Position numbers and translations under genes: made by a program | Part shown: piece by piece, positions 4,261 to 62,413 of the stretch | How the letters are laid out: every line of letters starts with the position of its first letter | Position numbering within the stretch: the stretch's first letter is position 1 | Notes under the pieces: model-generated | Database searches by the model: none | What the model saw: only the letters and a program-made list of their open reading frames with translations | Told to the model about the DNA's origin: nothing | Origin: Yuukianura sp. NJ FZ-2021 | Taxonomy: Eukaryota | Reading direction: 5' to 3' | Assembly (NCBI GenBank): GCA_046563655.1 | Contig: CM102283.1 | Location: 9,548,001-9,612,000, forward strand | DNA: 64,000 nt

Positions 4261-4281
4261 AGGTCAAGGGGTCAATGACCC
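4261..4281. promoter_or_regulatory. Composite nuclear-receptor element: DR2 plus perfect IR1 (AGGTCA-ag-GGGTCA-a-TGACCC)
   Basis: Sequence aggtcaaggggtcaatgaccc. IR1 is the canonical EcR/USP element geometry. Confidence 0.6.
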
Positions 4282-5055: not shown

Positions 5056-5068
5056 AGGTCATTGACCT
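5056..5068. promoter_or_regulatory. Perfect IR1/PAL1 ecdysone response element (AGGTCA-t-TGACCT)
   Basis: Exact match to the idealised EcRE palindrome. Confidence 0.65.
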
Positions 5069-5152
5069 GTTGCGTGCTCAATTTCTCCAGAGGTATTCCG
5101 TTTCTGAATTAAATTCTAAGCACTTTCAATTTAATCAAATTCTTCAAAATCT

Positions 5153-5168
5153 CCAAGGTCAATGACCT
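5153..5168. promoter_or_regulatory. Perfect IR1 EcRE overlapping an FTZ-F1/NR5A-type site (CCAAGGTCA-a-TGACCT)
   Basis: ccaaggtcaatgacct. The IR1 starts at 5156, exactly 100 bp after the one at 5056. Confidence 0.65.
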
Positions 5169-18603: not shown

Positions 18604-18616
18604 AGTTCAATGCACT
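18604..18616 (+). promoter_or_regulatory. hsp27-type EcRE (AGTTCA-a-TGCACT)
   Basis: Matches the Drosophila hsp27 EcRE core GGTTCAATGCACT at 12 of 13 positions. Confidence 0.55.
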
Positions 18617-21600
18617 CCAATGTTGACTTTGACTGGGCTGACCCAATTCCTCCCCACTTCGCCCCCCAACCACCCCCTACTCTAACTTTAACTTTGCCAA
18701 AAGGGGATGACACTTTTATGGGATATGCTAACGTTATTACTTCATAAGCACCCTCACCACAACCGCCAATTTCATGATTTTTTAAAAAGTTCCACTCTTA
18801 AACTCAAAATATCGAAAAACAATACTCATAAATTTATGAAGCTTTTTTGAATTTCAGTCCACCAATTTTAAATTTTGAATAAAAGTTTAGCTCTCAAAAT
18901 TTCCCCTGCCCTTGTGATTAAAAATTCGGAATTTTTTGATTCAAGGAAAAACAGACTCAGGTTGAATTTGAATTTTTTGAATTTGTGGATTTGCAGAAGT
19001 TTTCCAAGAATTTGACGTGAGTTGAGTCACGGAGTTTGTTTATTTTGGATTTTACAATGATTGTTTTCATTTCCGTGTTAGAGATGAAGTTTAATTTGAG
19101 GTTAGTTGCCTAAATTGTAATCTCTTTTGGATGTTAATAAGTGTCGCCTCTAGGAAATGTCAAGGGACGACGAGGAAGTTTACTTGCCTTCGATTGTTCA
19201 TTTTTCAGGAAGTTTTCAATTTTGCCCCCTTCAGTAATCTGATCACAAATCCGCATGAGAGCACACATACAGGAGTCATTGACTTTAGGTTATATCACAC
19301 AATAATCCATACCTCATGAATAATAATTGAGTAACACTTTCACTTTTCATTGTCAATCTGCCCCTCTGTCTGGGGGTGTGGAAGGGGGGTTCAGGTACAA
19401 ACATCCCCCATCAACCAATAACCTCCAAGCATTGGGCTTCGGTCAATGACCCAATCAAACAACGTCCTTCTGCGTCAATTGTATGCGCAATTGCATGAGA
19501 AAAACACAGAGAGAGTTCCCCCTGACCCCCCCCCCCCTTCCCACAAAAGGAAAAAACAAAAGACCAGTTTGGAATTGACCTTTTGGGGGTTGAAGCGTGT
19601 AGGCCTTCTAAGAGTTTGATTGAGCGGGAATAATTATATATTAAAAATAATTATATAAATATAACAAGAATTAGTTAATGGGGGGGGGGGTTCAGTTTGA
19701 GTAAAGGCATAACGACTTGCAAGGGGGGGGGGTAAAAGTGAAAGTTGCAATTTTTGTTAAAGTTCTAGAACTCCTTGGATAATTTCCCATTGTTAAGTGT
19801 CATGATGGGGGGTTCAACGACCCCTTGAAGGGGGATGGTGTGGGGGGTTCGTTGACCCCTTGAAGGGATTATCCAATGGTTCAGTGACTCCTTATGAGTT
19901 TTGTGTGTTACGAGGTTTGTGTGTACAAAAAGGCTCCCTTAACAATAATTTGTTTCATGCGGCTCCCAAAAGGGAAATTTTTACCCCGGAAGTCTTTTTT
20001 CTTCTGTTCTTTTTTCAAATGAAAACTAAAAGTGTCTTTGGCTGATGCATCTTTTTAGCTCCATCATCTTTTGTGCAATTTTTTTTTGCACGAAGTGATC
20101 ACTGATTTCAGAGATTTTGCAATTTGGTATACTGCCGCGCCGCCTGTTTGAAATTTTTTATTCCTAAAAATAATTTCTTGAAATGATTTTTCATGAAAAA
20201 TGAGCTTCAGTCTGATTTTGATTTTGTGAAACTTTCCCAAAATTTAAATTTTCTAATTTTAACTGAGCTGTTAAGTTTAGTTGGTCCTAAAACTGAGTTT
20301 TTTTTTAAATTCTGAACACATGCGCCGCAAAAGTGCAGAAAATGTACAAAAGACTTTCAATTTCCTCATTGTAACTTTTACAGATTTCTAAATGTGTCTG
20401 TTCTATTTTTAAACTTGACTAAAAAGACACACTTTCTTTTCTCTTTTGTAAAGAACTGTGTTTAAAAAGTTCCAAAATTTCACTTCCGAGTTCAAAAAAC
20501 AAAAATTTTCAAATTCAAAATTTCAGCCAATGTCCATTTTTGACCTTTCAAAAAAAAACGAATTTTAGCTTGCGCCGAATGAAAATTTTAATTTTAGAAC
20601 AGCATCTGCTGGACGTGGTTTTTCCAATTTTTTTTTGAATTTTGATTGTTATTCTGAGGGTGCTGTTCTCAGAATATCAATGAAGTGGACATGAGGCTAG
20701 GTTAAGGCAGGGGGGCCCTTAAGTGAACCAAAAAGTGATTAGTTTGACCATGGTCCCTTAAGTGTAACACTGAACCAGACACTTTCTCAGAGAGACCTTG
20801 ATACACTTCTGGACAACTGCCAAGGGCCCCCACATTTACATTTTTTGTCTATTTGTAGCTGAACCGGACTCAGGAGAGATTTTTAGTAGGTCAAAGTTAA
20901 GCCAGGCGGGACTCGAACAGAGGAGCCCTTACAAAGCAGCCCTTAGAAATGTGGAGAGGGCCCTTAACTTTTCATATGTGTTTGGGATGTGGTTGTTTGC
21001 TCACTTTGAACAACAATAATCCTACTCGTGGTCAACACACGCTCGATTAATTCATTAGTATGCAAAGCTACACTCTGCTTTAAATCCAGGACTTTAAGGG
21101 CTCCCCCGCTTTTTGAAGGGTCTCTGCTCAAGGGAGCAGGTGAGGAGCGGACCTTGCTTCTGATTCTTCCCGCTCCAAATTTAGGCCAAACAATTAATAT
21201 TTTCTGGACACACGACTGGACCCCCTCTGGGCCAAGGGGGGCCCTTGACCAATCACTCATTCCTTCCAACTGACCATGTTCAACACCCACACTTTAAGGG
21301 ACAAAAGGGGGTACTTAGGCCTTAACACTCCACAAGGACAGAACAGAAAGTGAGACCCTTCGATTGTTCCGTTTTCAGAAACTGAGAACCTTAATTTTCA
21401 AACACTTTTCAAAAAAAAAGTTTTCCAAAAAGTGACAGTTTCAGTTTGTCACTTGACTTGAGATCAGTATCTTGAGCGTGTTAAGGGCCCCCTTGAGGAC
21501 TTCAAATCATTTCAGATTTTGAACAATAGTTCAAAATTTTGAATTTTTTTTTGAAAGTGACATAACAGTTTTTTGAGAGTGTTGACCAATGAGGATTAAG

Positions 21601-22736: not shown

Positions 22737-25700
22737 ATGCACATCAAAAAACCAAAAGGCAGTTCAATGCTTTCCGTAATTGAAACGAATGGGAAACATG
22801 AAAACCATGGACATGGACATATGGGGACCAACGGAGGTAAAATTCAAAATTTCGAATTTCAAAATTTCGAATTTCAAAAACCAAAAACTAAATTTTGATG
22901 AGTTGAGAGAAAGTTTTTATGGTTTTCCCCACCACCGCCCCTGTGTCGATCTTGGACTTGAGCGTGTCTGAGCTCACGTCACTAAAAAATTAATTGTTAA
23001 CAATAAAACTTAACACAAAAATTTAACAATTGACAAAGTACGTTTTGTTGAACATTGTTGAAAGTGTGCTCCATTGTTTTAAACTTTTAAAAATTTCCGC
23101 CCGAGTGTCAAATTTCAAAACTGCATTGTGCTTAGTAGGTACAATCATCGAAATTCTTAGAATTTTTACTTGCGTCAAAGTCATTTTTGCGTAGGAACTT
23201 AGATAAAGCTTGGAACTCTGGAAGTTATAAACAACTTTTTCAAAATAGTTAAAAATTTTTCCTAAAAATTTAATTTTCAAAATTTTGATCGTTTTTCAGG
23301 AGTTTTGCACAACAATGGGATGAGTTTGTTTCAAGATTTGAAACTGAAGCGACGGAAAGTCGATTCGCGGGGATCTTCGGATGGCGAATCAATCGGAACA
23401 TCGGATTCGGCAGCCTCCCTGTCTCCAGACGTCCAAGCGCAAGGTGAAATTTCACCTAAAGACAAAGACCGGTAAGATTCGAATTTCAAAATTTCGAAAT
23501 TCAAAGTTCAAAATTTTTGTTTGTACGCTGGAAGTGCAAATTGCATGTCACTGCTCATGAAATATGCTTAACTAGCATGCATGCCCGCCTGCGACTGCCG
23601 TAATCAGCATCACCCCGTCCTCTAAATTTGAAATTTTGAATTTGCCGCTAAATTCCATTCATTCGTTTTTTTGAAACTTCCTTTTCCTTCCTGCATCCAA
23701 GTAGCGTTGTCCTACATTGATTAGCACAATTCTGAGTCAGCAGTTCAAATGTTAACTTTTCAAAAAAAGTGAAAGATAATGGAGGAAACGGAGGCAAAGT
23801 TTGAACATATTTTGTTTACACTGATTCAAATTTAGTATCACTTTTTAAAAAGTTGAGCCACAACTGTACTTGTCTAAAAATTCTTCTTTTGTTTCGAAAC
23901 ATATCAAAACTGATTATGATTTTACAAAGTTTATTTGCATTTCCGCATTTTTTGGGAAAACTGATCAGGTCAGAGTCGCAGATTAGTTTTTATGATTTTA
24001 TAACATCGAAGGTGATGCACTTTCATAATTTAGTGTTAAGGTGTTGAAGTGTCAAGAACTTGTTAAAAAGTGCTAATCAATTGCAATTGTCATCAATTAA
24101 TTAGAAATTTTTCGAAAACGGAAATTTTTTGGCGTATCGTCCACGGACAAGGCCATTTTCGTTGTTTTCGTTAACCTTTAACGTCATTGGCGCCTGATTA
24201 GCGACAAATCGCTTCTTCTCGGAAGGAAATCAGCGATGAGCTTTTGTTTTTCAACAAAACCAGTCATGCATACGTAAGCAGTTTAATTTAGTTTAGTTTA
24301 GATAACTAAAAAAAACTTTGCGGAAACATTCAAATTTTAGTGTTCCAAGATTTTAGTTATTGATTTTTTTTTGTGCTGGGGCACGCTGAGACAGGTAATT
24401 TTTTTGTCCAACTTTCTCTAACATACTCCCCCACTCAATTTGTGTAAAGTGCCGTAAAATTAGACAAATTGGAGTTTTTTTTTTATAAAGTAAGAATATG
24501 CATTGCTCTTGTCAAAATTATGAAAAAAAATTAGTTTTTAAAAACTTTTTTTGAAGTTTATTGGTACGAGGTAACCTTGTGCTGAAAAAATAAGGAATAT
24601 GTCATCACCAATTTTGTATTCCATTGTCATTGTTAGATTGCTGTAAGCAAAAGTTTTAAAAAGTTATTAAAAGTCACGATTTTGGGAATGAAAATTGTGA
24701 ATTTTAGTAAAGTAGGCCATGAGTTCAAGAACCTCCGTCCGTGCCGAAGTGGAGTTAAACTTTACAACTGTGGAACGTCAAACCTACTTTTAGCTTTTCC
24801 GACGAAAAAAAAAATGAAAACGAAAAACTTTTTTTTTCCAGAAACGAAAATGACTTCCGTGGTGTTAATTAGTCAATTTACTTTGTAATTTCAAAAAGAA
24901 AAAAAAATAATAAGTCCTTGCATATTCTTGTCCTTGCTTTTACTGTTTCAAAATTCTTGTGCTTTCACTTTTTTTTCCAGTAAACCAACATGTATGCTTT
25001 CACTCTGTTTTTTTGTCTTGCTGCTTTACCTGTAATAGAAAAAAAAATGGAATCTTGGTTCAATTTTTTTTTCAAATTTTCAAAATTTTGAAAATTTTCC
25101 CTGCATGTTCTTGTCCTTGCTTTTACTGTTTCAAAATTCTTGTGCTTTCACTTGTTTTTTGTCTTGCTTTTCCTGTAAAATGAAGAATTTTTTTTTCAAT
25201 TTTCAAATTTTCAAAATTTTGAAATTTCTTCTCTCTAGCTGTCTAACTCCAGAGGAAATCGGCCCGCCCAATCGACTTGACCCTGCTAAGGGTACCCCGT
25301 TCCCGCCAGACGCCTTAATCTTTATGATCAAGGCTGAACGGGACAGAGTGACTGCAGCCCTTAAGGACCCCCATGTCAAGGTCAACTTTGGTGACCCTTG
25401 TCGGTTGCCCATGAAACAAAACAGTGTCATTCAGTTGACCCCCAACGGCAGAGCAGATTTTGATCGGATTGTGGTCAAATGCGAACCGAAAGATGAAGAC
25501 GGCCCTCAAATTAACGGCTTAAGTCTCACTTGCAAGAGAAGTCGCGAAGGGACGCCAGAAAAAGGGCCCATGAGCATCGATAGCCCTGCGCAGTCGCCTA
25601 GCCAACGGCCACGTCAGAGTCCTGGACGGTCGTCATCGGCTGGAAGTGACAATGAAAGTATTGGATCCCGCAGTAGTTCGTGCAAAAGTGAGAAGAAACT

Positions 25701-28700
25701 GATCGTAGATGAGCAAATGGGTGGCAACTCTCCGCCGCCGCTCATTTCCCGCCTCCGTGACCCCAACTCCCCACCAGGTCACAACTCCAATTCAAATTCT
25801 AGCTCCACCAGCGGGGTGGGGCTGAGTCCACAGTCTATGTCTTCTGGATCTTCATCTGTCATTTTCACCAAAATCCACCATCAAGGTCAAAGGTCACCAA
25901 GCCACCACCATCAAGGTCAAAGGTCACCAAACTCCAGTCCTGTGCCATCTCCCCACCTCCACTTGATGGGCAGCCACCTTCCGTTGCTAAGCAACCAAAG
26001 CCACCTCCACGCTCGCTTAACAACAGGACCCACCAACAACCATGCCTCTCCTATCCCAGACCTGCGCAACATTGCCATGGAAAAAGTGGATCCACTTTCA
26101 GTAGTTACTTCAACTAGTCTCTCATTCCACCACCATTCACTCTACAGAATCAATGGAGTTCGGCCGGAAGTCATTTCAGGTGGGGCCGTCACCACCAGCC
26201 CCACCGGAGCAAGCCCGCCCCACCATCCAGGCGTCCCACCCAGGAAGTCCCCAAATCACACATCTCGCAGTCCCACGGGCTCTCCACATAGCAACTCAGG
26301 CTCATCCATCAGTTCAGTCATGGGCAATGGGTCAATCCACTCTCCTGGGTCAAACACAATTGTGGCTGGCGGGAGTCTGGGAATTTCAAATGGCAACCAT
26401 GGCAACGGCACAGGAAGTAACCATCACCATGTCAACTTGAACCGGACACCGACTGTGATCATGGGAGAAGCCGGCGGAGTGAGAACCATGCTCTGGTCAC
26501 AAAATCTGCCCTCTGACCTCCCCCCACTCGGCAACTCACCCCCCACCCCCAATCCCCACCCCTACACCCTCCCACCTCCAATAATGACTAATGGAAATGG
26601 GCACTTGACCCCTCATGACCTCCACCCCTCCCCACCCTCTGCTCCACCAAAGGGCTCTTTGAGCATGGAACGCCTCTGGGCATCCGAAGCCCTTAACCTA
26701 TCGACTGGCCCAGGGTCCATGGGTACTTCAAATAGTGTCAATTCCAAGGGCTCTTACTCCTCCTCCTCCTCCTCCTCCTCTCCTCCTCAGAATGGAATCT
26801 ACCAACACCATCACATTACAAATTCTAATCCGGAGGATGAGGAGTCTGAGCAACCCATGATTTGCATGATCTGCGAAGATCGAGCCACCGGCCTCCACTA
26901 TGGAATCATCACGTGTGAAGGGTACTTCAAAATTTTACAAATTTCTTACATTCTTGTCTGTGTCTGTCCAAATTTTCAAAAAAAAAAGTAAAAAAAAAAT
27001 CTTGAAACTTTCATCTATTTTTAAAAACAAAAAACTTTCACCAGTATTTTCTCTCCAAAGAGAAAACGACTACTCACCTCAAAAAATTGGAAAATCTGAA
27101 CCCCAAGGGACAATTTCTTGTAGAATTTGTGTTTAATTAATATAAATAATTAAATAAATTAATTAAATATAATATATTTTTGTAGGTGCAAAGGTTTTTT
27201 CAAGCGGACAGTTCAGAATCGTCGTGTGTATACCTGTGTAGCCGATGGTACCTGTGAAATTACGAAAGCTCAGCGGAATCGCTGCCAGTACTGCCGGTTC
27301 AAGAAATGTATTGAGCAGGGAATGGTGCTCCAAGGTCAGTTGAAACAATTAACATTGTTCTCTAATCTAATTAAATGTGATAACTAATTAATCTCATGAT
27401 TAACTAAATATCAACTGACCTGTTTAATTTTTTAGCTGTGCGTGAGGATCGCATGCCGGGGGGACGGAATTCTGGTGCGGTGTACAACCTATACAAAGTT
27501 CCGGTAAGTCCATAAATTATCTTTTAGTTTGTTCTGGAAGTAGGTGACCGACTATTCCTCGGAAAAGTCTGTTTTTCCTGCCTTCCTTTGTTTACTGTTG
27601 ATGACAGAAGGTGTTCTAATCCTCTGACTTTTGTTGTAATTTTAGGTCAAATACCGGAAGCACAAGAAAGGAAATCGGAGCGTAGGAGTGAAAGGAGAGA
27701 AAATGAATGGGGCGACGAATGGGCTGATTAATTGCAATCCTGCGCAGAATGGGATGAATGGTTCTGCGCAGCAGCAGCACGTACTGCCACCATCTCAGTC
27801 CAGTATGACTGGAACCATTCTCAAAGCAGCTCTCACGAGTCCAAATGAGGTCAACCACTTAAGGCAGGGCATTCCCTTTGAACAGGCCGCCGGCATGATT
27901 ACTCATTTGGTCCAATGTGACAACTTCCATGACATTGCGGCTCTCCAGGTACGTCACCTCGCCTGACCTTTCCATTTTTTCTTAAAAAAACAAAATTTTC
28001 TAAGAGGTAGCGACCAAAACCGGTTTTTGAAAAGTAAACAGCGTGACGTCACTGGGAGTGAAAATACGGTTTTTATCTAAGTTTTTACGCTATTTCTGAG
28101 CTATCAGCAAAAATTTTGAGGCTAAAATGATGAAAATGTTTAGAAGCACTGTAAATGAGTATATATTTAAATATTTCGCTGGTTTGGAATAAATATTTTT
28201 GGCAGCCCTGCCTATTAGCCTTCTAAATTCTCAACTGAAAATGACTTTTGGAAATTGACTAAAAATGACTTTTTCTACTTTTTCGTAGAACTGGGAGGAA
28301 CTTTTGGAAGGTGGCGGTGACCTGTCGGAGAAGTTGTGTCAAATGGGTGACTCCATTGTGTACCGTCTCGTCCAGTGGACCAAACGACTTCCCTTTTACC
28401 AAGAAGTGCCAGTTGAAGTGCACACACGAGTGCTGACACATAAATGGCACGAACTGCTTGTTCTGACGACTTCTGCGTGGCAAGCAATGCACACTCCAGG
28501 GCCTCCGACTTCCCTGACTGCCGAGGAGGAGACGATGGAGAACATTCAGATTCTGCAGAGATGCCTGCAGGCGATGATGGGGAGGTCATTGACCTTGGAG
28601 CAGCTCAGACAAGATGTAGGTCAAATGGTCGAAAGACTCACGTACCTCACGAGGTCATTCAGACGCCTCGGAATAAGACTGGAAGAATATGTGGCCCTCA

Positions 28701-29085
28701 AAGTCATTGCCATGCTCCAGAATACTGGTACGAAATCCAAAAAAAAAACACGATTTTTTTAAGGAATTTCGAAATTTTGAAATTTTGACCTGAAGTGATT
28801 GACCTTTTGCAGGCACAAAGTCAAATGAAGTTGCAGTAATCCAAGAACGATACATAAAATGTCTCCGGGCATTCCTAGAAGTCACATGTCCTGCATACCC
28901 TAATCGTTTGAACGAACTACTGCGAACTTTGCCAGAGGTATTTTGAAATTTTTTTTAAAAAATGAATTTTTTTTTAATTTGAATTTGGATTTTTTTTTCA
29001 GGTTCAGTCTGCCGCTGCCCTGCTTCTGGAAAGCAAAATGTTTTACGTTCCTTTTTTACTCAATTCAGCACTCCTACAGAGATAG
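22737..29085 (+). CDS. HR4: Nuclear receptor HR4 (NR6A/GCNF class), multi-exon
   Basis: Phase-consistent GT-AG exons: 22737-22836 (putative), 23300-23471 ([31 protein letters not shown], the insect HR4 N-terminal motif), 25239-26921 (low-complexity A/B region with [19 protein letters not shown] and LSMERLW, then first zinc finger [20 protein letters not shown]), 27186-27334 ([17 protein letters not shown]...[14 protein letters not shown]), 27436-27503 ([21 protein letters not shown]), 27646-27948, 28289-28727 ([25 protein letters not shown]), 28813-28937, 29002-29085 ([18 protein letters not shown]). Confidence 0.95.
24918..25228. repeat. Imperfect intronic tandem duplication just upstream of the HR4 acceptor at 25238
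   Basis: ttcttgtccttgcttttactgtttcaaaattcttgtgctttcactt occurs twice ~183 bp apart, followed by shared ttttttgtcttgct and ttttcaaattttcaaaattttgaaa blocks. Confidence 0.85.
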
Positions 29086-29086
29086 G

Positions 29087-29107
29087 AGGTCAATGACCTC
29101 TTGACCT
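29087..29107. promoter_or_regulatory. Perfect IR1 EcRE plus DR2 immediately after the HR4 stop codon
   Basis: TAG(29083-29085)-g-AGGTCA-a-TGACCT-ct-TGACCT. Confidence 0.55.
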
Positions 29108-31048
29108 CTCCTGCATCTTAGTCATTACTTCTTTAATTGATTTTAACCTTTGACCTTCTAATTTTAATTAATTAGTTAACTAAAATTAGTTAATTTGTTT
29201 TATAAAGCCGCTCCTTACTCTTTGTTTTACTGTCAATACATTCTACAATGTAATGTCGTTGTTCTCATTCTAGTTTCCTACTAGTTTTAGAGTTTTAGTA
29301 TTTTAGAAATTCAAGGTTTCATAATTTCCTGTGTCAAAATTTCAGTTTTCGAAATTGTAGTTCGACTTCACTAGTAATCTGTGTCAGCTTGCTGCAAATC
29401 CCACCTAAAGAACTTGACCATCGTAAAAACAATTTTAAAATTTCACAATTTTTGAAGATTTTGGGAAATGACGATGAGGAGGCCTTGTTAGAGAGAGTGA
29501 GAAAGATAACAGTTTCAAAACTGTAAAAATTTGCCCACACTTTTCAAAAATCCCTAAAGTAATTTCGTTTTTTTGGAAATCCTGTTTCGAACGGTTTAAA
29601 AACGTCCTGTTTGTAAATATACGTCTTCTAGAAATAAGTCGACAAATTGATCTCCCGTTTTTTTGTCAGCTAAAGTTTAGTAAAAATTTTAAAATTTAAA
29701 GTACGATTTAGAAAAAATGCATTCAGATCACAATTTTACCTAAAAGTGGAATACTTTCCAAACAGACGGACAGAAAGTCGGCTCGTGTTTTCGACAGTGT
29801 GATAAAGACTTGAGAGAGAGAGAAAAAATTGCAGAAATATTTTCACATTCGTAAAATTTCGGCGGTGCAAACCCTCCCTAATAACACAAAATGTTGGCGG
29901 CACAAGTTGAAAAAAGTTGAAAAAGTGACGGTTTAGGTTAAAAAAGACTAAAATATTTCAAAGGTGCAGAAATTTTAAGAATTCGGTCGAAAAGTGAAAA
30001 TTTTGTAATCTGTTTAGCAATGTACCTTATTATAATAATTTTAACTTTGGGATTGTAATACTAAACGGTGTAGTTTAACTTTTTTTGGGTCGTAGTTATA
30101 AATTAAAGGTAATTTTAGAATTTTAGTTCAGTAAATTTAAAAAGTTAGATTTAAAACTGATTGCCGCCGAAGTGGGATAATCACTCATCAAGCTAAACTG
30201 TGAATTTTAAAATGCTAAATTACACACACTTCTTAATTAACTCCAATGTAATTTCCGTATTCAATAATTAACTGCAGCATTAATTAAAACTTCACACCTC
30301 CCCATCCCAAAATGTTGAGCACTTTTACTATCTTGCCAAACACTGAAAATTTTCAAAATTTTGAAAACTGATTTGCGTTGATGTTCTCGGTAGCTATACA
30401 CTTTATCTTAAAAAGTTTGCACATTAAAAAGTTAGCGGGGGAATTGACCTAAGGTTGAGAGTACAATTAAAAATTGTGAATTTTAATCAAGGCAGTTTTT
30501 AATTAAGTTTTTTTCTAATTAATTTTCTTCATTTTAAAACTCATCTGTTGATTTCTAGGTTAATTTTCTTCCTATTTACCACAAATGTATTAAAAAGTTA
30601 TATGGATTTATAGAAAAAGTAAAATTTCAATTTGAATCTGTTTAAAAAAAATTGTATAAATTTCTAAAAAAAATTTCTAGTCATGTCACAAAAAAATAGA
30701 AACTTGGGGAAAATTATGTTCATTAGGAAAGCAATTGGACTGTTTTAGTTCCGTTTTTATCGAAAAATCAATGTAAAGCGGCCATTTTGAAAATGAAAGT
30801 GAATAGTTACAATTTATAAAAAAAATACTATTGAATTTGTGCAAATTTGAAATTTTTTTGGGGGTTTTGGGAATTTTAGGGGCGGGGGAAGAAGTTAAAG
30901 TTTAACTAAAAGTTAGAAAGAGAGAATATATTAATTTTTTTTTGTAATTGAAATCAAAAGTTTGGAATTAATTGTAATTATAAGGTTAACTAAGGTTAAA
31001 TTTAACTAAGCCGTGCTATATTACTACATGTCTTATTTTTAGTCAAAC

Positions 31049-31054
31049 AATAAA
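31049..31054 (+). terminator. Candidate HR4 polyadenylation signal (AATAAA), implying a ~2 kb 3' UTR
   Basis: AATAAA at the end of a long AT-rich ORF-poor stretch after the HR4 stop and just before the 131-bp satellite. Confidence 0.35.
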
Positions 31055-31153
31055 ATTATAAACAAATCATCTTTTACAAATGAAGTCGTTAAATCTCCGA
31101 ACTTTTTCTTCAACTTTTATTTTTCCACACTTTTTCCAAAAATAAGACGCTAA

Positions 31154-31764
31154 GAAGGTGTGATTGTGTTTTTAAAAATCAATATTTTGGAATTTTTTAA
31201 ATTTCCATAAAAAGGGAAAATGCACTTGAGTCAATTTGTTAGCCTAATCCTGACATTTTCCAAAAGTCCTTCTGTAGAAAGTTGGAAGGTGTGATGGTCT
31301 TTCAAAAAAACAATATTTTGGAATTTTTTAAATTTCCATAATAAAGGAAAATGCACTTTAGTGAATTTGTTAGCCTAATACTGACTTTTTCCAAAAGTCC
31401 TTCTGTAGAAAGTTAGAGGGTGTGATGGTGTTTTACAAAAACGATATTTTGGAATTTTTTAAATTTCCATAAAAAAGGAAAATGCACTTTAGTGAATTTG
31501 TTAGCCTAATCCTGACATTTTCCAAAAGTCCTTCTGTAGAAAGTTGGAAGGTGTGATGGTCTTTTAAAAAAACATTATTTTGGAATTTTTTAAATTTCCA
31601 TAAAAAAGGAAAATGCACTTTAGTGAATTTGTTAGCCTAATCCTGACATTTTCCAAAAGTCCTTCTGTAGAAAGTTGGAAGGTGTGATGGTCTTTTAAAA
31701 AAACAATATTTTGGAATTTTTCAATTTCTCATAAACTAGGAAGATACACTTTAGTGAATTTGTT
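31154..31764. repeat. 131-bp tandem repeat, about 4.6 copies
   Basis: Units start at 31154, 31285, 31416, 31547 and 31678 (gaaggtgtgatggtc...ttagcctaatcctgacattttccaaaagtccttctgtagaaagttg). Copies are highly similar. Confidence 0.95.
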
Positions 31765-32084
31765 TTGGTTCATGTGAAATTTTGTTTACTTTTTCTTTGC
31801 AAATATCGCCAAAAACTGGTATGGAATTGGCAAAAACTTAAGACTAGACAATTAGGTTGATCTGACTAAAGCTTCTTAGCCGTTAAACTGAAAGTGGTTA
31901 CAAGTGGTATCAAAAACACAAAAAATATTTTTGATACACCTAATTTAAAGTGTAAATATTATTGTACGTTGCATATTGGTTCATGATATTCGTTCATTTA
32001 GTCTCAAAACATCTTAACTTACGGTAGTGTTTAAGTAATGTTCGGGAATGTCTAGAAAACGTGGTATTTTGACGGGTTTGGAAT

Positions 32085-34069
32085 TTAGTTGAGTTCTTTA
32101 CACTTGAGGCAGTCGTCCATCTTTTCACTGAAATCTTCTATCTGAATCGTAACTTCTGAAAATCCGTACTTCGTCTTGACACGTTGTGAAGATTTGCGTA
32201 GAATCTGATTTGCACTGTACTTGGCAGTTGGATCTAAACAAAATTTGACAAGAGTTTAAAAAAAGTTAATTTTTGTTAGTTTAACTTAACTAATTAAGTT
32301 ATTTTTTTTTCTTACCAACAGCAAGATGAGCCGAGAGTGCCATTCTGTCCATCGAGAGTGACCAAATTCTTAAATTGTGCACTTTGTACACTCCCTTGAC
32401 ACTTAAGAGCGTCTCTCTTACTTGGTTGAAGTCAACGCCCTTTGGAATTCCTGCAAAATCCGTTTTCGAAAAAAATTTGGAATTTTTCAAAATTTTGAAC
32501 TATTTGCGATTTTGACTGACCTTCCATGAGGACAACGATTGCATCAGTGACAATGGCATAGGTCGTACCAAGCACAAGAATAGAAAAGAGAAATGTGCAA
32601 ATGGGATCCACAATGGCCCAATCCGGCTGTAAAAGTTACAACTTCAATGTCACAAGTGTAATTTTTTGAAATTTCGAAATTTTGAAAGTTTTTTTTTCGA
32701 AATTGACGAACCTTGAAAAATATAACGAGAGCTGCAATGAAGACACCGACACTTTGCAAGAAGTCGCCAATGACGTGGATGAAGGCTGCCCGGACGTTGA
32801 TGTTTGGTTTGTGGACGGTTTCTGGCGTTTCAGAGGAATCGTCACTCGTGTCACCCTCTTCGATGTCGCCGGCGACATTGTCACTGGATTTCGGAACTTC
32901 TTTGTGTTCTTCATGTCCAGAACTTCCTCCGCCGTGACTGTGTCCATGACTATGGCCGCCACCGTGAGTGTGAGCGTGCTGATGAAGTGTACATCCCATT
33001 CTGAAATTTTGAAAAATCAATTTTTTTCAAAAAAGTTCAAAAAAACTTGGGGCAATGTGAGACTTACATGATGTTGACGACCAATCCAACGCCGGAGGTG
33101 ATCAGCATAATGACGGCATCAATTTCGTAAGTTTTGTTGACAATTCGCTGAATGGCCATGAAAATGAGGATTCCAGTGACCACCCAGATGAGAAGCACAG
33201 AGGTCAAGGCACCAATGACTTCTAAAAGGTCAAAGGTCAAAGGTCACTAGAGGTCAAAGGTCACAGTGTATTTGGAAATGTTACCTGCTCGATGGTAGCC
33301 ATAACTGAGGCGTTTTGTGGCTGGTCGTTCTGAAATGTACAGAGCGAAAAGAGAGATCATGAATCCAGCAAAGTCTGTCAGCAAATGAGCAGCATCAGTA
33401 GCCACCGCTAAACTCCCGGCCAAAACACCACCTAAAAATTTCAATTTTTTGAAATTTTTTGAAAAACTCAAAATTTCAACAGTTTTGCCATTTCGAGTCT
33501 TGCTTCTTACCAACAGCTTCGACTATCATAAAGACAACACAGAGTGCACTTGCGAGCCACAACTTTTTACGAGCTTTCTTGTCTATCGCTTTTTGCAGCT
33601 CGTCATCGTGACAGTGCTCTCCAGAATCTTTACAAAAATTGAATTTTGAAAAATTAAATTTTGAAAAACTAAGTTTTGAAAAACAAAATTTCAAAATTTC
33701 TTAAATTGTAGTGTTAACCTGTGACAGTGATTGACATGTTTCTTCTCCTCGGTGGACTTTTGCCGGTGACCCCTTGACCTTTGCTTGCCCCTTGATCCTG
33801 GTAGCTCTGAGTGCCCTTGCAGTACCCACACACAAAACTGTCATCCGAAGGGCATTCGCAGTACCCCCTCTCACCCCTGTCGTCTGGACTGCTCCCATAG
33901 CCTCGATTCACTTCTCCCGTTAACCTAGTCAGTAAAAACAGAAACTTCAATTAACTAATTAGCAATTAACTAAAATTAACAATTAACATAAATTTTATAT
34001 CAAAGCTTCACAAATGACACTTCACACACCCACTTCCACAAAAACTTACAACGGACGCTTCTCTTCCAT
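32085..34069 (-). CDS. Zinc transporter, SLC30/ZnT family (ZnT2/3/8-like vesicular type)
   Basis: Exons 34069-34050, 33924-33719, 33627-33511, 33431-33285, 33221-33068, 33000-32712, 32626-32521, 32450-32316, 32233-32085. Motifs HCH..ARKKLWLAS, SLAVATDAAHLLTD (TM2 HxxxD), YGYHRAEVIGA, His-rich loop HAHTHGGGHSHGHSH, NINVRAAFIHVIGD (TM5 HxxxD), DPICTFLFS, LMEGIP, VHNLRIWSL, TIQIE. Confidence 0.95.
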
Positions 34070-59570: not shown

Positions 59571-59817
59571 GCTGCATGTCGTCACGGTGTCCGCATTTTG
59601 GCTTTGGACTATTCCTGACTAGGTCAATTAATAATTCTGGACAGCCAGGACGTTAGGAGGCCAAGTTCTTATTGCTGGAGAAGGAGGCGGCCCACACACT
59701 CACAAATATTTCAGTGGACATGGCTGTAGACCTTATTTCCAAACCACCACTACAAAGATTCAATTACACACCTTCTCTCACACGATCACCAAAAAAGTGG
59801 AGAAAACGTGGTTTCTC

Positions 59818-60110
59818 ATTTTTGTGATTTCTGGTTTTCCGATTTTCCGCTTCCTGATTTTCTTATTTTGGGATTCCTGATTTCTGGTTTTCTTATTTCT
59901 GGATTCCTGATTTTCTGACTTCTGGATTGCTGATGATTTCTGGTTTTCTGATTTCTAGTTTTCTAATGACTCCTAATTTTCTGATTTCTGGATTCCGGTT
60001 TTCCTGATTTTTGATTTTCTGATGTGTGGTTTTCCAGTTTGTGATTCCTGATTTCCTGACGTTTTTGGTTTTCTGATGTCTGGATTCCTGATTTTGGTTT
60101 TCTGATTTTG
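59818..60110. repeat. Degenerate (tttctga/ttcctga/tttctgg)n simple repeat
   Basis: Dozens of 7-8-bp variants in a row upstream of the GABA-B R1 coding start. Confidence 0.9.
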
Positions 60111-60212
60111 CAACTTGTCTCGAAACTTGTTTTTCTCACGGTTTTGGAAAGTTTTCTAGAGTTACTTACAAAAATGTGCGTAGGGGGAGGATGAGGGTGA
60201 CCCCTTGACCCG

Positions 60213-60224: not shown

Positions 60225-62413
60225 CAACTTGTTCTGTGAGCCGGAGAGAGTTGTAGAGCACAATATTAGAGTTTTGAGGAGAAAGTGGCTGGAGCGGGAG
60301 AGGTCCGTGTCAGTTGCTGGTGGAACCTGAAAGTGGGAAAGTAGTGCCACCGTCCTTTTGTTCCCTCTCGGAAAGAGGCAGGGACTCCACTGAACCCAGC
60401 GAGGAACCAAATCTCCGAACTTTTCAAAGTACCCGGGTAAAACTTTGGAACGGGAGCCAAGAACTACTTTAGGAAGAAAGTAGTGGGGGACCTGAGGACG
60501 CCGGATTGTGCAGCACCAGGCACTCTCTCCAACATCCTCGTAAACATTCACAAGAGGCAATACACAAGACCTCCTTCAGCTCTCAACCGAACTCCCCGAA
60601 TTCGGTTTTCACCCGCCAACTTCGGCCCCTCCTCAAGCTCCTCGCTGGGAGAAAGCTATGACGTCTACTCACGACGGCCACGCTCACGACTCCAGCCGCC
60701 TCCAACTTTTTTTTCCAGCGAAGGAGCACTGGAACTCCGATGCTGGAACACCACAAGTCTCTTCCAGTTCTGGAAATGACTGCACGCATCCCTGCCTTCC
60801 ACATCACTTTCTCCGTGTTCTCCCAAAGTGTCCTCGGATGACTTGAACTTTGTATTTTCCTTAAGGGCTCCTCCCTCCACTTAAGGGGTCCCTCCACTTA
60901 AGGCTCCTCATGACGACTTAAGGCTCTCCTCATGTGGAGTCAAGGGAACCAATTCCCACATTCTGCCTCGAGTCAACTTGTCAGGAGAAAGGCATTTCCT
61001 CCCATCTAAGCTCCACCACAAACATTTTTTCAATCTTCCCGCTTACGAGCTACTTGATCAACCTGATAGTCCCACATATTCAATTATGGACTTTGTCTCA
61101 TTTGTTCTACTCCACTTTTTTAAAAAAAGACTTTTCAAAAAAAGTTTTTAAAAAAAAAGAGACAGAAAGAACAACGCCCAGAAACTTACTTTTTGTTTTT
61201 GTCAAGTGGAGAAAGTTCTGTTGAACAAAAACGCCGCTTAAAAAAGTTTCTGTTTCTGACTTTTTTATTTTTCTTTTTTAATTTTTAGATACACTAACTT
61301 TTCTGGAATGTGCAATGCAAAAGTAAATGAGTTTTAGAAAAAGCTGAGTTTTTAGAAAAGTTTGGAATTTTTAATCAACGGTTTTTGAAAATAAATCAAG
61401 TTGTGGACTTAAAAAAGTAAAATTGTTATGCAGCGTTAAAGTGATGAATAAACATTAACTTTTTGGTCAACTTTTCAAATTCCAGTTTCGTTTTTTAAAA
61501 AAAACTTTGTTGAAATGAATGGAAATTGTCTCTGTCTGAGTCTTTTTAGTTCTGTAAACTTTTCATGGCCGCCAGCACTTTGTACTATAGTAAAGCTGTG
61601 GATTAATAAACAACTTTTATGAAACAACTTTGAAGTTTTGCGTCTGTTTTGGGCATTGGTAAAAACAAAATATTTCTCCACTATACTTTTGGTATGCTTG
61701 CCAAAAATTTAACTTTTCTATTGGAAATTTTTATTATTCATACTAACTTAGAACCAGATGCTACCCTCACCGGAATTAACTTTACAAGGCGTCAAAAACT
61801 ACTTGAGCACACGGTTTTGTCTTCTCGCCGCCAGTTCAAATCCCACTCTCCTCTCTCGAAAAAAAAAACAAAACAGTTTGAAATTCAAACCACAAAAGAT
61901 CTTGTGCGGTGCATTTTGAAGTACCGGATATTCCTCTTTTCCCACTCTTTCAAGCGATTCTAAATAAACTCAAACTGTTTGTTTTCCCATTCAAAAAACA
62001 CAAAACCCTAACTTTTTTTTTTCAAAAACCTGACTTTTTTCAAAAACTACAACTTTTTTTTTCAAAAAAAGCTTCATCCCATTTTCCAAGGTTCCTTGAC
62101 AACGAAGAGTTATTTTTCTTTAACAGGTTGGGTACCACCTCGCTTGTTAACAAAAAAGTCAAAAAAAAAATTAGCACCACTTTAGTACCAATCCAAAAAA
62201 TTGGTACCAATTGGTATGCAAAATTTAATAAAAATTGACTGCATTGTTATGACTATGATGCCCCGGAATGAAAAGGTACTTTTTTTTTTGCAAAATCGAA
62301 AAAACATTAGGTACTACCCAACCTGTTAAAGAAAATAAATCTAAAAGTCAACAAACCTTGCCATTTCCCGTCGTCCCCGTGGGCTGCAGAAAGTCGAAAA
62401 AGTGGAAATGATT

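Follow-up and report, generated by a model that had tools for sequence, protein, structure and literature searches.

We describe a perfect IR1 that is spelled by codons of the ligand-binding domain (LBD) in the nuclear receptor gene HR4 of a springtail, and we relate it to an excess of its half-site, AGGTCA, that runs through the coding sequence of the gene. In the reading that we favor, with a probability of about 0.5, the exonic IR1 would be a young, redundant and putative EcR/USP-type site in a lineage-specific cluster that is under weak collective selection. It has the look of one replaceable site in a crowded group and not of an ancient dual-coded switch. The locus is unusual in that the recoding runs along the gene and is restricted to one lineage, the outgroups are clean, and natural variation falls within the site itself.

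The window, by which we mean the whole 64-kb stretch of DNA that was analyzed, contains a coding model of eight exons that runs from 23320 to 29085 and encodes a nuclear receptor with zf-C4 and Hormone_recep domains:

23320-23472, 25239-26921, 27186-27334, 27436-27503, 27646-27948, 28289-28727, 28813-28937 and 29002-29085, plus strand: exons of HR4 (NR6A) in the gene model
29083-29085, plus strand: HR4 stop codon in the gene model

Its best named protein matches are the HR4 proteins of Allacma fusca (85%) and Orchesella cincta (84%), and insect and crustacean HR4 proteins are mostly 56-66% identical to it. The product has both the C4 zinc-finger DBD and the LBD of HR4 / NR6A, and it falls in the HR4 clade with support of 100/100; by this membership, the source animal is a springtail. 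The domain matches, the nearest named proteins and the clade support thus bear out the original prediction that the gene is HR4 and that the element lies in an LBD coding exon. That exon, 28289-28727, is an open frame of 146 codons whose reading frame is kept at 84-99% across five relative loci, one of which (L002) has no introns over the region, in support of its translated status. The exon-3 donor at 27503 fits the YKVPVKY reading of both Allacma and Orchesella HR4. Two in-frame donors six bases apart at 27497-27503 would give YKVKY or YKVPVKY; the longer form is found in the springtail homologues, and insects are without VP.

Within the LBD exon, codons AGG TCA TTG ACC TTG (R-S-L-T-L) contain the following features:

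28583-28595, both strands: perfect IR1 AGGTCA-T-TGACCT, an exact match to the EcRE motif RGKTCAWTGAMCY, over the codons R-S-L-T-(L)
28590-28598, minus strand: FTZ-F1/NR5A-type 9-mer CCAAGGTCA, overlapping the right half-site, on the T allele only
28595, plus strand: synonymous T/C difference, TTG/CTG (Leu), with T in the window and in run X1 and C in run X2 of the same sample

For the EcRE we scored the 13-bp motif RGKTCAWTGAMCY, as used in the methods portion of bioRxiv 10.1101/517458, and for the FTZ-F1/NR5A monomer the consensus PyCAAGGPyCPu, as quoted in an excerpt of PMC3630131. On the T allele, the IR1 has no mismatch to the former and the minus-strand 9-mer fits the latter, and both motif assignments of the original prediction stand. 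When the HR4 coding sequence was shuffled synonymously, 17 of 20000 shuffles yielded a perfect IR1, and the HR4 protein has no peptide window other than RSLTL that could spell one, so the exonic IR1 is real and beyond ordinary codon noise. The coding sequence also holds four FTZ-F1-type 9-mers against 0.74 expected.

The peptide is older than the DNA word, as far as the aligned proteins and codons tell. The original prediction gave insect HR4 as reading roughly GRPITM at this place, and this was accurate: the commonest octamer among 120 protein matches is GRPITMDQ (52/120), and most insect and crustacean HR4s have GRPITM or something similar. The three closest proteins, on the other hand, read GRSLT, and the springtail clade has RSLT in eight of nine rows and RNLT in the remaining one. 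Allacma has RSLTV and Orchesella RSLTI, neither of which can spell the perfect palindrome or the FTZ-F1 9-mer, and L002, L003 and L004 encode RSLTL in codons without any element. The suggestion that the protein drifted to accommodate the site therefore fails, because RSLT is the state of the springtail clade and RSLTL is present without the element in three relatives.

The relatives come from a metagenome scan that returned six loci, five of which (L001-L005) span the site; L006 ends at exon residue 28 and was excluded. L001 is the sister of the window sequence, with a support of 95/89 that leaves the bootstrap not fully settled. It reads AGGTCA-C-TGACCC, in which both half-sites are still RGGTCA, the spacer C is one mismatch to the EcRE motif, and the FTZ-F1 9-mer is absent, as it is in all five relatives. 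The two sequences are otherwise well diverged: 41 of 89 four-fold sites are identical (~0.95 changes per site), the AGG of the site is the sole AGR among 22 aligned Arg codons of L001 (the other 21 being non-AGR), and none of the window's seven other AGR arginine codons is AGR there. Retention of all four informative codon states in L001 has a chance of 0.007, 0.038 or 0.045 in three simple models, and 3 of the 70 comparable four-codon runs in the LBD exon in frame are likewise unchanged at third positions between the window and L001. By codon comparison, the exonic IR1 is absent from L002, the next relative, and from L003-L005; it is thus kept in one relative of five, where the kept state amounts to one pairwise comparison, and lost in four, with one synonymous within-sample difference inside it. 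L002-L005 also have no site within one mismatch of the EcRE motif in the DNA compared, which comprised 14 kb for L004 and 20 kb for L005, and the latter two loci suggest that other springtails regulate HR4 without gene-body EcREs. On these alignments, conservation is shallow, concerns the IR1 alone and is restricted to the window species and its closest sampled relative.

The spelling of the element also differs within a sample. Three of five sequencing runs (X1, X2 and X5) were compared. Two runs of one sample, X1 and X2, which may be the window's own source, gave contigs (not raw reads) with the same limits, 28484-28736. The X1 contig (depth 205) equals the window and the X2 contig (depth 50.8) differs from it solely by T>C at 28595, 112 letters from the contig end; the sole difference in these 253-nt contigs falls inside the element. 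We infer a heterozygous or pooled site that was collapsed differently in the two assemblies. The original prediction held that synonymous alternatives would break the element, and this is partly right: TTG>CTG at 28595 destroys the FTZ-F1 9-mer, the perfect palindrome and the 18-nt identity discussed below, but the match to the EcRE motif stays exact. Since C is also the state in four of the five relatives (L001, L002, L003 and L005), T is probably derived. With C read in X2 and the 9-mer missing at all five relative loci, the FTZ-F1 site is not fixed, and the FTZ-F1 component of the original prediction is unsupported. At least 10 differences among X1, X2 and the window occur in the ~60 codons of 28304-28483, those listed all being synonymous, which indicates high diversity; after 28483 there is one difference in 253 nt. 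In run X5, from another organism, short contig pieces at a depth of 5.72 cover 28595 with T, and the rest of the exon is uncovered. The mean depths of X5 over 28583-28600 fit a piece of ~18 nt, and this run gave no listed contig over the exon. The HR4 intron ahead of the LBD exon carries a high-copy repeat at 27990-28260, for which the contig depths in X1 add up to as much as ~30000. It has an indel joint at 28158-28262 and resembles a small mobile element.

No hexamer is more over-used in the window than AGGTCA, which occurs 109 times (61 and 48 on the two strands) versus 27.5-40.6 expected, rank 1/2080 under order-2 and order-3 models. The first 30 kb hold 69 copies (5.9-fold) and the other 34 kb, around unrelated genes, hold 40 (2.8-fold). 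In the HR4 coding sequence, 14 of the 28 places able to spell the word do so, four of them non-independent as they come from one 30-nt duplication, versus 2.25 expected from shuffles; none of 20000 shuffles reached 14, and the maximum was 9. The realized places comprise 10 of 18 in sense and 4 of 10 in antisense; the DBD-to-LBD part has 6 of its 12 filled and the LBD exon 5 of its 7 (AGGTCA/TGACCT). With half of the permissive coding places filled, the exonic IR1 loses the status of a special, single dual-coded element that the original prediction had given it. GGGTCA is raised too (7 of 33 coding places, p 0.008), and the eight other one-letter variants of AGGTCA are at background level in the HR4 coding sequence. 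The orthologues realize 2 of 10 places in L001, 1 of 25 in L002, 0 of 6 in L003, 2 of 23 in L004 and 2 of 16 in L005, where the exon sets of L004 and L005 have one exon missing and a first segment that may include some intron. Neighboring genes realize 6 of 39, a lower rate than HR4 (Fisher p 0.003), in a control made of 15 exon pieces cut from long ORFs and not of full models, two of which (50687 and 45876) are without family support. Where the coding half-sites differ from the relatives, they do so by point changes and not by insertions, as can be followed at three places in the LBD exon:

28318-28323, minus strand: coding half-site (G-D-L), absent in all five relatives
28618-28623, plus strand: coding half-site (V-G-Q), GGGTCA in L001, L004 and L005 and other letters in L002 and L003
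28652-28657, plus strand: coding half-site (R-S-F), absent in all five relatives

The neighbors on the minus strand, at 32544-59618, have Pfam matches to cation efflux, VHS plus SH3, DUF229 and class C GPCR families; the VHS plus SH3 gene is presumably STAM-like, and the class C GPCR gene we take to be GABA-B-like. Just past an exon of the cation-efflux (ZnT-like) gene, six AGGTCA half-sites run together at 33201-33263 and include three DR1 pairs. Telomere-like TCAGG repeats were considered as a source of the word and rejected, with no TCAGGTCAGG in the window.

The half-sites are paired as well as abundant. There are four perfect IR1 in the window, at 5056, 5156, 28583 and 29087, versus 0.046 expected from the half-site counts (~90-fold), and there is no IR at spacing 0 or 2-4 in the window. 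When up to one mismatch is allowed, IR1 matches number seven in the window versus 0.11 in shuffles. Sites with at most one mismatch to the EcRE motif lie in the first 30 kb (1-30000; HR4 and its upstream DNA) in 14 of 16 cases (Markov expectation 1-2, binomial p 0.0009), which sets an ecdysone-cascade gene among EcRE-like sites. The other paired sites are:

4269-4281, palindromic: upstream IR1 built from GGGTCA half-sites and fitting the EcRE motif exactly
5056-5068, palindromic: upstream perfect IR1 from the motif count
5151-5168, plus strand: upstream non-coding element with an FTZ-F1-type 9-mer and a perfect IR1 (at 5156), the reverse complement of 28583-28600
25884-25926, plus strand: perfect DR1 pairs at 25884 and 25914, where 30 nt of the N-terminal coding exon are duplicated in tandem (HHQGQRSP twice)
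29087-29099: perfect IR1 from the motif scan, one base past the HR4 stop, extended on the minus strand as a DR2 (to 29107)

The upstream elements lie ~18 kb ahead of the first recognizable HR4 exons and are plausibly HR4 regulatory DNA, because no protein-coding gene was recognized in 1-22.7 kb of the window. One-mismatch EcRE-like sites are also found at 19440, 19811, 19846 and 22453, and a degenerate, hsp27-like EcRE, AGTTCA-A-TGCACT, lies upstream of HR4 at 18604-18616. The IR1 after the stop is unchanged in runs X1 and X2 and absent in L002-L005. Each DR1 pair in the duplication carries an FTZ-F1-type 9-mer, and the duplicated peptide HHQGQRSP is poorly matched in L002 and Allacma; this duplication is a better candidate than the LBD site for a DNA motif that has shaped a peptide.

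The inverse match between the exonic site and the upstream element was reported correctly, as 28583-28600 is the exact reverse complement of 5151-5168. Apart from an exact inverted pair at 62115 and 62317, it is the only non-tandem exact repeat of at least 18 nt and at least 35% G+C in the window. The bases flanking it mismatch on both sides. The 18-mer adds five bases to the 13-mer, three of which are fixed by the Leu and Glu codons, and CTCCA stands ahead of 5 of the 109 half-sites, so that the extension is itself a favored word; the identity therefore needs no special cause. A copy of the upstream 18-mer into the exon was rejected, there being no homology past 18 nt, and the element is carried by none of the 20 largest families of direct repeats or the 25 longest pairs of inverted repeats listed.

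The history that we propose would begin with the springtail peptide RSLTL, on which the IR1 would have arisen late, by synonymous point changes, in the lineage of the window species and its closest sampled relative. It would be redundant, one among the nuclear-receptor sites that lie densely clustered over the HR4 locus and extend into its coding exons. Numerous weak and replaceable sites may have been favored collectively for the greater receptor occupancy that they would give over an ecdysone-response gene, with synonymous positions recruited wherever the protein permits. Single sites would turn over, and changes that preserve RGGTCA would be tolerated. The FTZ-F1 9-mer and the 18-nt identity would be incidental, as they depend on the unfixed, probably derived T at 28595 and on the Leu-Glu codons. 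Should binding occur in this way, an effect on HR4 transcription may follow. The exonic IR1 is probably bindable by EcR/USP, since an idealized IR-1 (PDB 1R0O, cited in PMC1885670) binds better than the natural hsp27 element in the part of that paper available; natural EcREs are often degenerate according to the same text, which means that perfection is unnecessary for function.

A stronger version of this reading, which we consider unlikely, would have selection for receptor binding recode synonymous sites throughout the gene, so that the HR4 gene body would act as one extended hormone-response element and the LBD IR1 as a bound functional node, retained after the divergence from the nearest relative and still under adjustment through T/C at 28595. 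The main alternative, held tentatively, takes the opposite direction and regards the site as a by-product of a genome-wide, non-regulatory enrichment of AGGTCA, in which two favored words happened to fit one peptide and had no role in HR4 control; the enrichment could stem from mutation or repair that depends on sequence context, from conversion, from the copying of micro-repeats, or from binding by a protein that is structural or particular to the lineage. The window-wide rank of the word speaks for it, and the 2.8-fold excess near unrelated downstream genes means that the word may be driven by something other than the regulation of HR4. With 12 of the 26 other coding places realized, both halves of RSLTL would be realized ~21% of the time if independence is assumed; the element is missing from four of five relatives, and the only difference in the 28484-28736 contigs sits inside it. 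However, such a by-product does not readily account for pairs at one-base spacing far above the half-site prediction and clustered at HR4, for the greater saturation of HR4 coding DNA than of neighboring genes, for half-sites that differ from the relatives by point changes and not insertions, or for L001, which keeps the paired site while two lone half-sites of the LBD exon are lost there and one reads GGGTCA.

The remaining explanations carry little weight. A specific, strongly constrained exonic enhancer that combines EcR/USP and FTZ-F1 sites, owes its sequence to copying from the upstream 18-mer or to co-evolution with it, and had the protein change to fit it is very improbable and already largely refuted. 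It would draw on two exact consensus matches in the window, on the near-uniqueness of the 18-mer and on the retention of the IR1 in L001, but the 9-mer is absent from every relative, forbidden by the peptide in Allacma and Orchesella and broken by the C allele of X2, L002-L004 have RSLTL without the element, and the homology ends at 18 nt with an extension that is a favored word. We give hardly any credence to an RNA-level signal, be it an exonic splicing or stability element or a small palindromic hairpin. Half-sites do overlap two HR4 splice junctions that are kept in L001, the exon-2 donor at 27333 (27328-27338, CTCCAAG/GTCA, with an FTZ-F1-type 9-mer) and the exon-4 acceptor at 27644 (27644-27649); against this, the word is found on both strands in the window and in both orientations in the coding sequence, the site lies ~130 nt from the nearest exon end, and a hairpin with a one-base loop cannot close. 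Equally faint is pure chance spelling under ordinary codon usage with zero enrichment: a handful of synonymous choices suffices, and scanning many windows will meet rare spellings, but the shuffles seldom give the IR1 (17 of 20000) and never reach the 14 half-sites. Chance is refuted for the half-site load, from which the single site is inseparable.

Among known systems, the exonic site most resembles the 13-bp IR1 of EcR/USP, with an exact motif match and a one-base A/T spacer. It also lies in a gene that EcR binds in Drosophila wings (bioRxiv 10.1101/517458, in the portion available) and that has EcRE-containing, 20E-responsive enhancers in Bombyx; the acetylation changes described in the available part of the Bombyx study are mainly non-coding (PMC9502983), whereas the springtail site is in coding sequence. 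Unlike the degenerate hsp27 EcRE, it is a perfect palindrome, and this candidate EcRE is limited to a shallow clade. The likeness to an FTZ-F1/NR5A site is an exact minus-strand 9-mer on the window's allele; it differs in being unfixed in the sample and absent from all five relatives. Duons, or exonic enhancers, are a known but disputed class (human data; bioRxiv 10.1101/2021.09.06.459186, as far as its available text goes), with which the site shares a candidate consensus for factor binding that is spelled through the choice of synonymous codons within a conserved domain of the protein. It differs from them in that its constraint is at best shallow, and its signal is one receptor word that recurs throughout the gene in a single lineage.

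Homotypic clusters, or billboard enhancers, consist of redundant sites for one factor family near a target, with gain and loss between species, and HR4 is similar in having many redundant receptor-type sites around it that turn over between species. Its cluster differs by passing through coding exons and by standing on a raised AGGTCA background around unrelated genes. Single-site duon cases describe far less than this gene-wide receptor-word load. In the open-access literature, we found no report of a coding EcRE in HR4 or of springtail HR4, nothing that combines exonic enhancer, synonymous constraint and nuclear receptor, and nothing on TGACCT overrepresentation in invertebrate genomes; in the portions available of one paper on EcR binding, exons serve solely as control loci.

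Whether factor binding shapes codon choice, the question behind duons, is a matter of dispute, argued mostly from weak signals in human data. HR4 offers one receptor word in half of the permissive coding places, with orthologues as a clean negative control, and the natural T/C variant inside the site makes the question directly testable through allele-specific binding and recoding. If AGGTCA is instead the by-product of a genome-wide process, the site becomes ordinary and the process itself becomes the problem. As for other repeats in the window, the exact 18-nt inverted pair at 62115 and 62317 has its members ~200 nt apart and possibly marks the ends of a small element, a 131-nt tandem repeat occupies 31022-31807, and a degenerate 15-nt tandem array lies at 59810-60116.
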